Source: an uncultured Chloroflexia bacterium (GTDB taxonomy: Bacteria; Chloroflexota; Ktedonobacteria; Ktedonobacterales; JADMIN01). From it: DNA of 32,000 nt. A program made the translations under genes and the position numbers. Below are positions 4,113-25,778 of the stretch, piece by piece; within the stretch, counting starts at the first letter, position 1; each line of letters starts with the position of its first letter. The notes under the pieces are model-generated. The model made no database searches. It saw only the letters and a program-made list of their open reading frames with translations, and was not told the DNA's origin. Location of the stretch: contig CAVRAI010000003.1 in the NCBI GenBank assembly GCA_963718915.1, forward strand, positions 480,001 to 512,000. The letters run 5' to 3'.

Positions 4113-7100
4113 ATGCATGACTACAGCGAAGACGCCCTCGTCGAGCAGCCCGCCATCGCCCTGCTCAAACAACTCGGCTGGCCACATATCAACGCCTTCC
4201 GCGAGACCTTCGGCGAGAGCGGCACGCTTGGCCGCGAGACCGAGGGCGAGGTAGTCCTGGTCAGACATCTGCGCGCCGCGCTGGCGAAGCTCAACCCCGG
4301 CGTCTCCCCCGACGCGCTGGAGCTGGCTATCGAGCAGATCACCCGCGACCGCTCCGCCATGAGTCCCGCCGCCGCTAACCGCGAGGTCTACAGCCTGCTC
4401 AAAGACAACATCGTCGTCCGGATGCGCGATACCAGCGGCAACGAGCGCGACGAGACCGTCTGCCTCATCGACTGGAACACCCCCGCCAACAACGACTTCC
4501 TGCTCGTCTCGCAGCTCTGGGTCGCGGGCGATATGTACCGCCGCCGTCCCGATCTCGTCGGCTTCGTCAACGGCATCCCCCTCGTCTTCGTCGAACTCAA
4601 AGCGACCCATCGCCGCCTGGAGCACGCCTATCAGGACAACCTGCGCGACTATAAAGACACCATCCCCCAGCTCTTCTGGTACAACGCCCTCATCCTCCTC
4701 TCCAACGGCAGCCAGACTCGTGTCGGCTCCCTCACCGCTGGCTGGGAGCACTTCTTCGAGTGGAAGAAGATTGAAAGCGAAGGCGAGCCGGGCGTCATCT
4801 CGCTCGATACCGTCCTGCGCGGCGTCTGCGACCACACCCGCCTGCTCGACCTCGCCGAGAACTTCATCCTCTATCGCGAGAGCGGCGGCGCGCTCATCAA
4901 GATCCTCGCCCAGAACCATCAGTATCTCGGCGTCAACAACGCCATCGAAGCCGTCCGCGCCATCCGGGCGAATCAGGGCCGCCTCGGCGTTTTCTGGCAT
5001 ACCCAGGGCAGCGGCAAGAGCCTCTCGATGATCTTCTTCTCCCAGAAAGTCCTGCGCAAACTGGCTGGCGTCTGGACCTTCCTCGTCGTCACCGACCGCC
5101 AGGAGCTCGACGGCCAGATCTACCAGACCTTCGCCACCACCGGAGCCGTCACCGAGGACGAGCGCGCGATTCACGCGGGCAGTGGCGAGCAGCTCAAGCA
5201 ACTGCTGACTGAGCAGCACAGGTATCTGTTTACGCTCATCCAGAAGTTCCATACCGAGCCAGGCATCGCTCTATCCCGAAATCTCCAGCCGCGACGACAT
5301 CATTGTCATCACCGACGAGGCCCACCGCAGCCAGTACGACCAGTTCGCCGCCAACATGCGCCGCGCCCTGCCCAGCGCCGCCTTCCTCGCCTTCACCGGA
5401 ACCCCGCTCATCACCGGCGAGGAGGAAAAGACGCGCGAAGTCTTCGGCGACTATGTCAGCGTCTACAACTTCAGCCAGTCCATCGAAGACGGCGCGACCC
5501 TGCCGCTCTACTACGAGAACCGCATCCCCGAACTACAGCTGACCAACCCCAACCTCAACGCCGACATCGAGGGACTGATCGAGGCCGCCGACCTCGACGA
5601 CGACCAGGAGCGCAAGCTGGAGCGCGAGTTTGCCCGCGAATATCACCTCATCACCCGCGACGAACGCCTGGAGAAGATCGCCGAAGACCTCGTCGCCCAC
5701 TTCCTTGCCCGTGGCCAGCCCGGCAAAGCGATGGTCGTCAGCGTCGATAAAGCCACCGCCGTCCGCATGTACGACAAGGTCCGCGCCCACTGGCAATCCA
5801 CCCTCGCCGACCTGCGCGCCCAGCTCAGCCCGCCCGCCATCACCTACCCGGTAAAGTCGCCGCGCCCAGGCGATAGTGGCGATACCCCGCCCACTGTTGG
5901 AGCTACAACTGCCCCGCTCTCCGAGGCCGAGCGCGCCCGCCTGCGAGAGCAGATCGCCTTTATGGAGGCGACCGATATGGCCGTCGTCGTCTCGCAGTCC
6001 CAGAACGAGGTCGCCGACTTCCGCGAGAAGGGGCTGGATATCGCCACCCACCGCCGCCGCATGGTCACCGAAGACCTCGAAACCAAATTCAAGGATCCCG
6101 TCGACCCGCTGCGCATCGTCTTCGTTTGCGCGATGTGGATGACCGGCTTCGACGTCCCCAGCCTCACCACCATCTATCTCGACAAGCCCATGCGCAACCA
6201 TACCCTGATGCAGACCATCGCCCGCGCCAACCGCGTCTTCGCCGACAAGACCAACGGCCTGATCGTGGACTACGTCGGCGTCTTCCGCAACCTGCAGAAA
6301 GCGCTGGCCATCTACGGCGGGACGCATCTCGACGGCATGGGCGGCGACGAGGCGGAAGACACGCCCATCAAGGACAAGAGCGAGCTGGTCGCCGCGCTCC
6401 GCCAGTCCCTCGCCGATCTCGACATCTTCTCTGACCTGCACGGAATAGATATCCCCGCGCTGCTCGCCGCCAGGGGCTTCGACAAAGCCCGCCTGCTCGA
6501 CGACGCCGTAGACACGCTCGTCGCCAATGACGACATCCGCAGGCAATTTCTATCAGATGTGGCGCAGGCGGCGCTGCTCTACCGCGCCATCCTGCCAGAT
6601 ACCAGCGCGGGCGAGTTCACCGCCGCGATGAGCCTCTACGTCGCGCTCAGCAAGAAGATACGCGCCCTCTCGCCCGAACCCGATACAGCAGGCATTATGG
6701 CCGCCATCGATAAGCTGCTCGACGTCAGCATCGCCAGCGAGGGCTACGTCATCGAGCAATCGGCAGACTATGCCACCGCTCGCTACATCGACCTCAGCCA
6801 GATCGACTTCGACGCCCTGCGCGCCCGCTTCGAGCATGGGCGCCAGCACATCCTCGCCCAGGAGTTGCGCACCGCCATCGAAGGCAAGCTCCACGATCTC
6901 ATCGCGCGCAACCGCACGCGCATGAACTACCAGGAACGCTTCGAGCGTCTCATTGCCGACTACAACGCGGGCAGTCTCAACGTCCAGCAGTTCTTTGATC
7001 AACTGCTCGTACTCACCCGCGACCTGAACGCCGAAGACAAGCGCCACATCGCCGAAGAACTGAACGAAGAGCAGCTTGCCATCTTCGACCTGCTCACCCG

Positions 7101-7371
7101 CCCCAACGTAGACCTGTCCGGGCGCGACCGCCAGCAAGTCAAGCGCGTCGCCCGTGACCTGCTCGAATCGCTCAAGCGCGAACAGCTTGTCCTCGACTGG
7201 AAGAAACGCCAGGCCGCACGCGCCGCCGTCAAGGTCGCCATCGAGAAAGTCCTCGACAACGAGCTACCCAAAGCCTATACCCGCGACCTCTACGAACAAA
7301 AATGCGATAAGGTCTTCCAACACATCTACGACAGCTACGCCGACGCCACCCACAACATCTACGCCGCCTGA
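4113..7371 (+). pseudogene. hsdR: Type I restriction-modification R subunit (HsdR, SF2 helicase/nuclease with DUF3387-type C-terminus), interrupted by a +1 frameshift near 5268-5272
   Basis: Frame A (4113-) gives the N-terminal nuclease region, then QGSGKS (motif I) and ...LIQKFHTEPGIA. Frame B (open from 5209) continues YPEISSRDDIIVITDEAHRSQYD (DEAH), FTGTPL, QTIARANR and a long C-terminal helical domain ending at 7371. The junction ggc atc gct c|tat ccc indicates one extra nucleotide. Confidence 0.9.
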
Positions 7372-7783: not shown

Positions 7784-7821
7784 TATCTGCTATATCTGCT
7801 ATATCTGCTATATCTGCTATA
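7784..7821. repeat. 9-bp tandem repeat x4 (tatctgcta) plus a degenerate 5th unit
   Basis: Units at 7784-7792, 7793-7801, 7802-7810 and 7811-7819, in the leader/promoter region of the MBL-fold gene. Confidence 0.9.
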
Positions 7822-7875
7822 GCTGGATAGCATCGCGAGTAGCATTGTAACGGACTTCTCAAAGGATAGGCGCCC

Positions 7876-13558: not shown

Positions 13559-14134
13559 GTGCACGTTGAGCCGCACGCGGCTGGCGCCAAAGAGTCGCAA
13601 GCCAGCAGCCAGGTCGTGCGCGGACATGTGCAGCGCTTCGGCGACTCTGTGGATACCGACGCGATCATTCCCGGCGAGTTCTGCCACCTGACGAAGCTGG
13701 AAGACCTGGGCGACAAGGCGTTCTACTACGTCCGGCCAGAGTTCCGCGCGCGGGCGCGTGAGGGCGCGAATATCATCGTCGCGGGCGAGGGATGGGGCAG
13801 CGGCTCCTCGCGTGAGATGGCCGTCTGGGCGCTGCAAGGTGTCGGCATTCAGGCGGTTATCGCGAAGAGCTACGCCTTCATCCACAAGCGCAACCTGGTC
13901 AATGAGGCGCTGCCCTATCTGGTCGTGACCGACCCCGCCTTCTACTCACTAGCCACCGAGGGGTCGGAGCTTGAGGTGGACCTGGCGCGCGGCATCGTGC
14001 GTGATGTCGCCACCGGACGCGAGTTCCAGGCGCTGACGCCCTCGCCGATGATTCAGGCGCTGACGGCGGAGGGTGGGCTGGTCGCGGCGGTGCAGCGCCA
14101 CGGCAAAGAGGTCTTCTCGGCGCTGACGGCGTGA
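13559..14134 (+). CDS. Aconitase-superfamily dehydratase small subunit (LeuD/HacB-like); start uncertain (GTG 13559 or GTG 13616)
   Basis: VRGHVQRFGDSVDTDAIIPG, then GEGWGSGSSRE (the GxGSSRE swivel-domain motif). GTG 13616 would give the family-typical N-terminus, while GTG 13559 lies 8 nt after the large-subunit stop. Confidence 0.8.
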   Translation: MHVEPHAAGAKESQASSQVVRGHVQRFGDSVDTDAIIPGEFCHLTKLEDLGDKAFYYVRPEFRARAREGANIIVAGEGWGSGSSREMAVWALQGVGIQAVIAKSYAFIHKRNLVNEALPYLVVTDPAFYSLATEGSELEVDLARGIVRDVATGREFQALTPSPMIQALTAEGGLVAAVQRHGKEVFSALTA

Positions 14135-14145
14135 CTGTTTCTTGT

Positions 14146-14169
14146 CCCCCTCCCAACTCAGGGAGGGGG
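14146..14169. terminator. Perfect 9-bp GC hairpin between convergent genes (candidate bidirectional terminator, no U-tract)
   Basis: ccccctccc (14146-14154), aactca loop, gggaggggg (14161-14169). It lies between the LeuD-like stop (14134) and the CMD-family stop (14190). Confidence 0.55.
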
Positions 14170-14189
14170 CATATCCGCGTTTGTGCGAT

Positions 14190-14768
14190 TCAATCGCCAG
14201 TGGTGTTTGCGGCAAGGCCGCCCTGCGTGCCTGGCAGCACCTCGTTGTGGCCGATGCCGAGCGTCTTGATCCAGCGTTGCTGCCCAAGGGTCAGCGCGAC
14301 GAAGAACCCAAGCTCCACCAGCTCGGGATCGGTGAAGTGCGTGTGCAGCCGCTCCCAGAGGGCGTCATCGGCGATAGTGTCGTCCCAGATAATCGCGCTG
14401 GTGTAGGTGAGCGCCGCCTTCTCGCGTTCGCTGAACTCGTCGGAATCCTCGAACAGCAGTAGCTTGGCGTACTTCCCTTCAGGAATGCTTCCCGATCCAG
14501 ACCGGACCGATCGCTGCACCCCTCAATACTCGCACGCGATGGACTGCGAGACGTAGACGCGGCAAAGTTCCTTCAAGTCGTGGTCGAGCACGCCCGTGCG
14601 AAATGTCGTCTGCCAGGCCTGCGAGAAGGCGCGGATGACGGCGGGCACGTGCGCGCGGATCGCCTGGCTCTCTGGCCGTGGCGCGCCATGAATGCGAGCA
14701 TCTTCCAGGTATCCAAGGATTTCGGGGTCGGTGATGGCGGATAGGTCAGCATACGGTATTCTGGGCAT
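14190..14768 (-). CDS. Carboxymuconolactone decarboxylase / AhpD-like family protein with an in-frame TGA (14523-14525) at the second Cys of CxxC: candidate selenoprotein, or a nonsense pseudogene
   Basis: Two adjacent ORFs (14523-14807 and 14190-14519) share one frame and are separated only by TGA-GGG. Read-through gives ...VSQSIACEY-[TGA]-GVQRS... and a single 192-codon CMD-family protein. AGGAG lies 8 nt before ATG 14766-14768. Confidence 0.7.
14492..14510 (-). promoter_or_regulatory. SECIS-like stem-loop downstream of the in-frame UGA
   Basis: The RNA UCGGUCC-GGUCU-GGAUCGG has a 7-bp stem (two G-U pairs) and a GGUCU loop. The loop G/U lie 20-22 nt after the UGA, close in sequence and spacing to my recollection of the E. 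coli fdhF SECIS apical loop (GGUC). Confidence 0.45.
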
Positions 14769-14940
14769 CCTGGTGACTCCTCTCTTGTGGTCGGCGGCCC
14801 AACACACTCGCTTGCCTGTGTGGATGTATCGTAGTGCGCTCGAATCGGCGCGTCAACCTGTTTCTGTTAGCCAGGAACGGTTCCGCTTGAAACCCGCCGC
14901 ACTCCTAATAGAAGAGTGATAGAAGAGTGCGGAACGCGCT

Positions 14941-24944: not shown

Positions 24945-25065
24945 ACATTAACCGCCCGCGCTCCCATGCACCTGTGTGCTGCGTGTGTAGCACATGGACT
25001 CGGCGGACTGATGGTACACTGATAATGAAGAGATGCTGTAGCGCCAAGTGAGGAATAGAGCGTAC

Positions 25066-25778
25066 ATGACAGATGCGACATCGGGGCCGGATAACGCTTC
25101 GGAAGATGATTCATCAGGACAGGAATTGATCCTCGAAGTTGCCTGCAATGTTGCCAACACCCTTGAGCAGGCCGTTGGGCTTGGCGAGGAAGACTTGCTG
25201 CGGGTGGCGCTGCTCACACTGGAACGTGTGCGGGTGTCGGAGTCGGTTGAGATCAGTGTGCTGGTGACGGATGATGAAGGGCTGCACGAGTTGAACCGCG
25301 ACTTTCGCGGGAAGGATGAGACGACCGATGTGCTGTCGTTCCCGCTGCTCGCCGCGCCGCTGGTGGAGGCTCCCGCCGACGAGCTTTGGCAGCCGGACGA
25401 AGATGATAATGGGGATGATGCGGCCCAGGTAGAGCAATGGCCCGACAGCGCCGACCACGGATCCGCTGGCCTCATGGATTCCGACGACGATGAAGAGAGC
25501 GATACCACGACGACGGCGGCAGGCGACGGGGATGGCGATGCGGCGACGACGACGACTATGACGATGGGCCAATGCATCTTGGGGACATTGCGATATCACG
25601 AGATGCTGTGGTGCGCCAGGCGGCGGCGGCTGGCCACAGCGTTCCCTGGGAGTGCGCCTATCTGTTTGCGCATGGGCTGCTACATTTGATGGGATACGAC
25701 GACTCAACCGACGCTGGCTATCGCGCGATGGTTGCGCACCAGGAGGCCGTGCTGACCGAGGCGCATATCACCCGCTGA
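25066..25778 (+). pseudogene. ybeY: Endoribonuclease YbeY (rRNA maturation factor) with a long acidic insertion and an apparent -1 frameshift near 25543-25545
   Basis: Frame 1 gives ...NRDFRGKDETTDVLSFPL plus an acidic low-complexity tract. Frame 0 (open from 25494) gives GDDDDYDDGPMHLGDIAISRDAVVRQA...FAHGLLHLMGYDD, the YbeY metal-binding motif. The junction lies in gcg gc|gac gac gac. Confidence 0.8.

Follow-up and report, generated by a model that had tools for sequence, protein, structure and literature searches.

The window analysed here (32,000 nucleotides, positions 480,001 to 512,000 of contig CAVRAI010000003.1, assembly GCA_963718915.1, from an uncultured Chloroflexia bacterium) carries on its minus strand two open reading frames, 14523-14807 and 14190-14519, which the ORF listing places in the same frame with a TGA as their sole separator, as a sequence-only reading of this DNA had described. 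That reading took the TGA for a selenocysteine (Sec) codon within a single gene of the CMD/AhpD type. The locus thus raises the question of whether this codon specifies Sec, ends a dead or a split gene, is a misread Cys codon or is read through as another amino acid. The comparisons presented below make it very probable that the region 14190-14768 is one gene for an AhpD-like selenoprotein, with a Sec-specifying UGA followed by a bSECIS element.

Gene layout and reading frame

The elements of the gene and its immediate surroundings are listed below.

14190..14768, minus strand: predicted complete gene for the AhpD-like selenoprotein, of 192 codons with Sec82 counted, followed by the stop TGA at 14190-14192
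14523..14525, minus strand: predicted Sec codon UGA, residue 82, second redox position of C79-E-Y-U82
14532..14534, minus strand: Cys79 codon TGC, first (resolving) Cys of the putative CxxU redox pair, invariant in the homologue alignment
14777..14780, minus strand: Shine-Dalgarno-like GGAG, 8 nt upstream of the ATG at 14768, read from the sequence
14828..14856, minus strand: sigma-70-like promoter candidate TTGACG-17 nt-TACGAT, from a consensus scan and a pattern match only
14146..14169, no strand assigned: G+C-rich inverted repeat CCCCCTCCC-N6-GGGAGGGGG, read from the sequence

Only one internal stop, the TGA at 14525-14523, is found in 14190-14768 on the minus strand. The DNA at this point reads TGC(14534-14532) GAG TAT TGA(14525-14523) GGG GTG CAG CGA TCG GTC CGG TCT GGA TCG, and the translation around the stop is SIACEY*GVQRSVRSG. 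Read-through gives the product of 192 codons stated earlier, and a database search with this protein returned ~3,800 homologues, roughly 190 residues each, that can be aligned with it over the full length. The start was placed at ATG 14768-14766 and not at GTG 14807 because the N-termini of the homologues read MPRI(P/S)Y. Upstream, the sigma-70 consensus scan found one site against 0.1 expected. At the other end, the inverted repeat sits between the convergent aconitase small-subunit-like gene (end 14134) and the stop of the selenoprotein gene (14190), and probably acts as a terminator in both directions, with no T-run; the consensus terminator scan missed it. The neighbours of the gene are aconitase-family subunits, HlyIII, an aldehyde dehydrogenase and an ECF sigma factor.

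Two compensating frameshifts around the TGA were considered because another frame reads RSGLDREAFLKG, which is CMD-protein-like. They were rejected because the in-frame GVQRSVR that follows the stop agrees with the family consensus in the homologue alignment, which leaves one in-frame TGA as the whole of the disruption.

The same motif bears on the reading in which translation ends at the TGA and re-initiates at GTG 14519, so that the AhpD-like protein would be made as two polypeptides. This GTG does lie 3 nt after the TGA, but it encodes the Val in the conserved motif G-V-Q-R-S, with GCG, CTG and GAC at the equivalent position in relatives, no ribosome-binding site precedes it, and such a split would part the two redox residues of one helix-start motif. 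We regard the production of two polypeptides as scarcely credible.

Two further genes of the window are disrupted. The type I restriction R-subunit gene hsdR (4113-7371, plus strand) is split by a single-base frameshift near 5255-5265, with HSDR_N and the first half of SWI2/SNF2 in one frame and DDIIVITDEAHRSQYD and the remainder in the next. The gene ybeY (25042-25700, plus strand) is apparently frameshifted as well, its N-terminal part with a long acidic insert being in one frame and the region of the C-terminal metal-binding motif, HGLLHLMGYD, in the other. Since ybeY is a conserved housekeeping gene, its breakage suggests assembly indel errors rather than real decay, and the sequence quality or the gene integrity of the window is imperfect. 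Two tandem repeats, both perfect or near-perfect and in intergenic or unclear-coding DNA, were also seen, at 2131-2226 (23-nt unit x 4.2, GCAGGCGGGCTTTGTGGCCGAGT) and at 7784-7825 (9-nt unit x 4.7).

Distribution of the TGA codon among relatives

In the family alignment an invariant C-x-Y-C has its second Cys in the column of the TGA, which is the redox position assigned to the codon from the sequence alone. Among the 120 best of the ~3,800 homologues this column holds Cys in 107 and 'W' in 11 (P0003-P0007, P0010, P0015, P0017, P0020, P0022 and P0034). The DNA of three of these 'W' proteins (P0003, P0005 and P0007; loci L001-L004) was inspected and showed TGA in all three, and translation of the called genes did not reproduce the stored proteins. 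Evidently the metagenome gene caller had moved to a code in which TGA is Trp on short contigs, giving the 'W'.

At the DNA level the TGA form prevails. TGA occupies the homologous codon in 80/80 of the most similar reference-genome loci (one genome per species scanned), which span Ktedonobacterales and at least eight other phyla (taxa as labelled): besides Ktedonobacterales and other Chloroflexota, they include Dormibacterota, Actinomycetota, Armatimonadota, Binatia, Rokuibacteriota, Thermodesulfobacteriota/Deltaproteobacteria (Syntrophobacteraceae among them), Burkholderiales, Verrucomicrobiia and others. Protein identity to the window reaches 95% in the Ktedonobacterales/Chloroflexota loci. 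The codon was also found in 72 of 80 metagenome loci, even though that scan was seeded deliberately with Cys forms, which brings the total to 152/160 independently sampled loci; the related genes that keep both the TGA and the co-varying hairpin described below number ~155. The sequence-only reading had allowed for relatives with Cys codons and no hairpin, the TGA being unique to this allele; what was found instead is TGA together with the hairpin in all 80 genome loci and in 72 of the 80 metagenome loci.

The two closest metagenome-assembled genomes (L005 and L006, Illumina-type assemblies) have TGA at the same codon. They share with the window a syntenic segment comprising the PPOX-like gene, the large and small aconitase subunits, the selenoprotein gene, HlyIII, the aldehyde dehydrogenase and the ECF sigma factor, at 90-99% amino-acid identity, and by these signs their genes are true orthologues from independent assemblies. 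This evidence bears directly on the reading of the TGA as a one-base sequencing or assembly error, with TGC or TGT read as TGA. Errors of the indel type are suggested by the single-base frameshifts in two other genes of the window. The disruptions of hsdR and ybeY are indels, as had been held from the outset, not substitutions, and the codon is likewise TGA in L005, L006 and 78 further genomes, so that a base-calling error has a vanishingly small probability.

Selection on the region after the TGA was examined in 14 Ktedonobacterales relatives. The dN/dS values over the 103 codons downstream of the TGA were 0.05-0.23, compared with 0.02-0.14 before it, with dS up to 0.9 and no further stops after the TGA; these 103 codons are under purifying selection. 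It is against this background that a nonsense mutation has to be weighed, in which a TGC or TGT Cys codon would have become TGA and left the gene dead or cut to 81 residues. The other disrupted genes of the window (the hsdR and ybeY frameshifts) and the Cys forms that dominate the best database proteins (107/120) could be taken to favour it. Against it stand the identical TGA in 152 of the 160 sampled loci, the strong purifying selection with no additional stops downstream, and a co-varying hairpin specific to the TGA forms; that the relatives' TGAs are all assembly artefacts is implausible across separate projects and sequencing platforms. A pseudogene can accordingly be given almost no weight, and the conserved TGA, the co-varying hairpin and the selection after the codon all favour Sec recoding over a nonsense mutation, as first supposed.

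The closest full-length database homologue (P0001; L085 10001-10573, on the 1.57-Mb contig_11942 of ENA ERZ25039538) is 80% identical to the window protein and is a Cys form with TGT. Its genomic context is unlike that of the window and its hairpin is degraded, with 4/6 pairs. This locus shows that Sec and Cys have been exchanged among proteins closely related to that of the window.

The hairpin downstream of the TGA

Two RNA elements are considered in the region that follows the TGA.

14492..14510, minus strand: bSECIS core hairpin, 5' arm UCGGUCC (14510-14504), loop GGUCU (14503-14499), 3' arm GGAUCGG (14498-14492)
14482..14522, minus strand: possible lower stem of an extended SECIS around the core hairpin, GGGGUGC (14522-14516) pairing with GCAUUCC (14488-14482)

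The core hairpin is as originally described, with its onset 13 nt after the UGA, a 7-bp stem and the GGUCU loop at +20 to +24. The published bSECIS model calls for an apical loop of 3-9 nt with a G within its first two positions, an upper stem of 4-16 bp, a UGA-to-loop distance of 16-37 nt, and a minimum free energy of -7.5 kcal/mol or lower; the loop is usually of the form N1-G-[G|U]-N-N2, in which N1 pairs with N2 (PMC13188914). The window hairpin, with a 5-nt loop, a 7-bp stem, a UGA-loop spacing of 19 nt and a folding energy of -8.3 kcal/mol for the hairpin alone, agrees with the model in every respect. Its GGUCU loop fits the N1-G-[G|U]-N-N2 pattern with a closing G·U as N1·N2, while the loop of the majority clade is A-G-G-C-U with A-U closing. 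Folded in a 59-nt context, the region reaches -21.3 kcal/mol (z = -2.57), and 2/200 shuffled sequences fold equally well.

Covariation was analysed in an alignment of 85 loci (83 distinct sequences), each contributing the 63 nt that surround the TGA. The six inner pairs are formed in 83/83 distinct TGA-form sequences and in 72/72 metagenome TGA forms, and the G at the second loop position is invariant in 85/85 sequences. The pairs persist through changes of both partners: pair 30-44 is C-G (53), G-C (16) or U-A (14), pair 31-43 is G-C, G-U or A-U, and pair 32-42 is U-A or C-G. A total of 34 double-sided changes was counted, and neither this count nor the covariation score was reached by any of 500 column shuffles. 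Sliding the 3' arm by 1-3 columns lowers the pairing from 94% to 25-55%, and RNAalifold independently predicts the identical helix. The compensations couple Ser codons (TCC, TCT or TCG) on one arm with Arg CGG, Gln CAG or Ser TCG on the other. Synonymous changes on one arm thus track amino-acid changes on the other, a behaviour that is not explicable by protein constraint alone and that indicates selection of the hairpin as RNA.

A different picture was obtained for the genes with a Cys codon. The six core pairs are complete in 2 of the 12 Cys-codon loci sampled, the number formed being 4, 4, 3, 3 and 6 in one group and 3, 2, 2, 6, 5, 2 and 1 in the other. With pairing at anything from 1 to 6 of the six positions in these loci, the hairpin accompanies the TGA and not the protein sequence. 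In two TGC Cys forms, L089 5001-5600 and L141 1501-2073 (assembly FWWL01, GCA_900175155.1), the usual place of the SECIS element is still taken by a perfect hairpin of that type, which in L089 reads UCCGUGC-AGGCU-GCACGG and in L141 is identical to the consensus of the Sec forms. These are probably fossil SECIS elements left after a recent replacement of Sec by Cys.

The lower stem (14482..14522) occurs in the minimum-free-energy fold of the window sequence. It is partly kept in 16 Ktedonobacterales sequences and takes another register in other clades. When a conserved lower stem was sought, two registers were tried and neither paired consistently across clades. As the lower stem has no common conserved register, only the upper hairpin is claimed here, and the extended element is at most weakly suggested. 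A scan of 14100-14900 against Rfam, at E up to 10, gave no match to a curated SECIS family; a match to the KDPG-aldolase sRNA on the opposite strand was dismissed as chance.

Genetic code and decoding of the UGA

The remaining reading accepts that the UGA is read through and gives it an amino acid other than Sec, either by a reassigned code (Trp or Gly, codes 4 and 25) or by a near-cognate tRNA (Trp or Cys), with the hairpin acting as a stimulator only. Gene callers did write W in 11 database entries. TGA nevertheless serves as the stop codon of the selenoprotein gene itself and of ~10 other likely genes in the window, so that the genetic code is standard and not code 4 or 25. When the window was scanned for internal TGAs with coding-like sequence on either side, 14523-14525 was left as the only credible one, and no second Sec-type codon was found; the sole other candidate, antisense to a glycosyltransferase gene, was rejected. 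Moreover, the codon occupies a redox Cys position, in a family for which CxxU forms with Sec are documented, and the hairpin loop fits the G-[G|U] pattern of the SelB type. Taken with these points, read-through to another amino acid is very improbable, though a shade less so than the other alternatives, and Sec insertion is the reading retained.

Genes for the Sec machinery were sought around the locus. ARAGORN detected no tRNA in the window and no tRNA-Sec among the 5 tRNAs that it found in the window and L001-L084, and motif scans of these sequences gave nothing credible. tblastn with the E. coli SelA, SelB and SelD queries (NC_000913.3) matched nothing in the window, nor in related loci totalling 1.07 Mb. 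The lack of a tblastn or ARAGORN match in the flanking sequence indicates that the sel genes are not linked to the selenoprotein gene.

From the arrangement of codon and hairpin the following course of decoding can be proposed. A ribosome arriving at the UGA (14525-14523) would meet the hairpin 13 nt downstream, which would present its GGUCU loop 20-24 nt after the UGA. SelB·GTP·Sec-tRNA(Sec) would bind this loop, Sec would be inserted in place of termination, and translation would run on to the true stop at 14190.

Protein fold and active site

The read-through protein belongs to the AhpD/CMD fold, as had been proposed. A profile search against the PDB gave E ~1e-9 to PA0269 (2O4D/2IJC) and Atu0492, and 9e-9 to the Bmp8 debrominase. 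The AlphaFold2 model is all-helical (pLDDT 76.7, pTM 0.75), and its best Foldseek matches in the PDB are exclusively AhpD/CMD structures, with a probability of 1.00 and TM values of 0.6-0.8. The region of the active site is weak in this model, with a mean pLDDT of 51 for residues 81-90 and 59 for residues 91-100 and with residues 87-93 below 50.

The protein scores under the cut-off of every curated model. With Pfam PF02627 (CMD) the score is 18.3 bits (E = 0.0023), where 23 would be required, and a precomputed match to this family is carried by many homologues. The top NCBIfam match, NF053654 'YciW-related (seleno)protein', reaches 51.5 bits against a cut-off of 310, and TIGR01926 (peroxidase-related enzyme) 18.6 bits against 81.8, both below threshold; NF041047 and NF041238 do not figure in the list of five families with E of 1 or less.

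The HMM alignment places Glu67, Cys79, Tyr81 and Sec82 on Glu36, Cys48, Tyr50 and Cys51 of PA0269, so that the Glu-x11-Cys-x-Tyr-Cys spacing is identical to that of PA0269 (Glu36...Cys48-Ala-Tyr-Cys51). The proton relay of AhpD is Glu-x11-Cys-x-x-Cys-x3-His, and its His (His55 in PA0269, His137 in MtAhpD) was invariant in the six structures compared (PMC3141380). The window protein departs from this canonical relay: four of the five residue positions match, the second Cys is replaced by Sec82, and the position of the relay His is taken by Arg86 within Q85-R86-S87, an Arg that is invariant in Sec and Cys forms alike. The protein would by its predicted sequence work as an AhpD-type selenol-thiol oxidoreductase, yet it is not a canonical AhpD.

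Within the conserved AhpD helix pair, Sec82 and Cys79 (C-E-Y-U) would be located where the second helix begins, and Glu67 precedes Cys79 by twelve residues. Sec would take the place of the second active-site Cys, and the two residues would constitute a selenenylsulfide/selenol-thiol redox couple. Such a couple would probably serve to reduce a partner peroxiredoxin, a peroxide or some other small substrate, oxidised or halogenated. No ahpC or peroxiredoxin gene was present among the 20 ORFs scanned against Pfam between positions 50 and 25686.

The resemblance to characterized structures can be followed further. The window protein shares the all-helical AhpD fold with MtAhpD (1GU9) and PA0269 (2O4D/2IJC), with TM values of ~0.6-0.8 to 2O4D, 2GMY and 2PRR. 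It differs from MtAhpD and PA0269 in the Sec predicted at the second Cys, in the Arg for the relay His, in having no adjacent ahpC, and in ~45 extra N-terminal residues with an invariant PRPESQ motif. The Bmp8 debrominase (6OHI) is similar to it in its CMD/AhpD fold (TM ~0.7), its length and its active-site Cys chemistry; identity between the two proteins is ~16%.

Relation to known selenoproteins

The sequence-only reading had described the AhpD-like proteins as a reported bacterial selenoprotein family, which is correct, as is the CxxU motif (PMC1088965, PMC2398784, PMC13188914). The Sargasso Sea survey of 2005 described AhpD-like (COG2128) CxxU proteins as a new selenoprotein family with 27 sequences, together with 4 'CMD domain-containing' CxxU proteins (PMC1088965). 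In the GOS data of 2008, 'AhpD-like 1' (COG2128, CxxU; 299 sequences) was the fourth most abundant family, and 'AhpD-like 2' (PF02627, CxxU) had 70 sequences (PMC2398784). A 2026 review lists several CxxU families of the AhpD and CMD types for which NCBIfam models exist (PMC13188914). With AhpD-like CxxU selenoproteins reported since 2005, the window gene is a further member of a known family.

The published AhpD-like/CMD CxxU selenoproteins (Zhang & Gladyshev) and the window protein have in common the fold superfamily and the placement of Sec at the second CxxC position, and in both groups Cys and Sec forms coexist and a bSECIS lies immediately downstream. The label of the homologues at JGI is 'alkylhydroperoxidase family enzyme', the name of COG2128. 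Comparing by description only, the earlier reports were mainly marine, while the window clade comes from soil and sediment metagenome-assembled genomes, Ktedonobacterales included. The hairpin can likewise be set beside the E. coli fdhF SECIS: both lie in the coding sequence just after the UGA and have a GGUC-containing apical loop ~20 nt downstream. The window element differs from that of fdhF in its shorter, perfect 7-bp upper stem without a bulged U and in its unconserved lower stem.

What is new in this protein is modest: a score under all curated cut-offs, the Arg in place of the relay His, the predominance of Sec in the sampled soil and sediment genomes, and the occurrence in Ktedonobacterales, an aerobic soil order of the Chloroflexota. 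No mention of selenoproteins in this order was found in the literature searched. A broader proposal, which we hold tentatively and with slightly more doubt than belief, is that these proteins form a distinct, widespread and uncurated subfamily of AhpD-like selenoproteins. It would be recognised by PRPESQ, by E-x11-C-x-Y-U-x2-Q-R-S with Arg for the relay His, and by GQQRWIKT near the C-terminus; its Sec form would predominate in bacteria from soil and sediment belonging to at least nine phyla (152/160 loci), its presence in ~16 Ktedonobacterales species genomes would give the first indication of Sec use in the order, and annotation pipelines would split its genes or write Trp.

The biology itself is unsurprising, AhpD-like CxxU proteins being among the commonest bacterial selenoproteins. 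For the genome at hand, the two split ORFs would be one functional selenoprotein gene, in which the Sec codon should be annotated. The annotation error is systematic: callers truncate members of the family or print Trp (code 4) at the Sec codon, and such misannotation hides a very common soil selenoprotein from the protein databases. The Ktedonobacterales-like host is predicted to possess the selenocysteine machinery and to need selenium.
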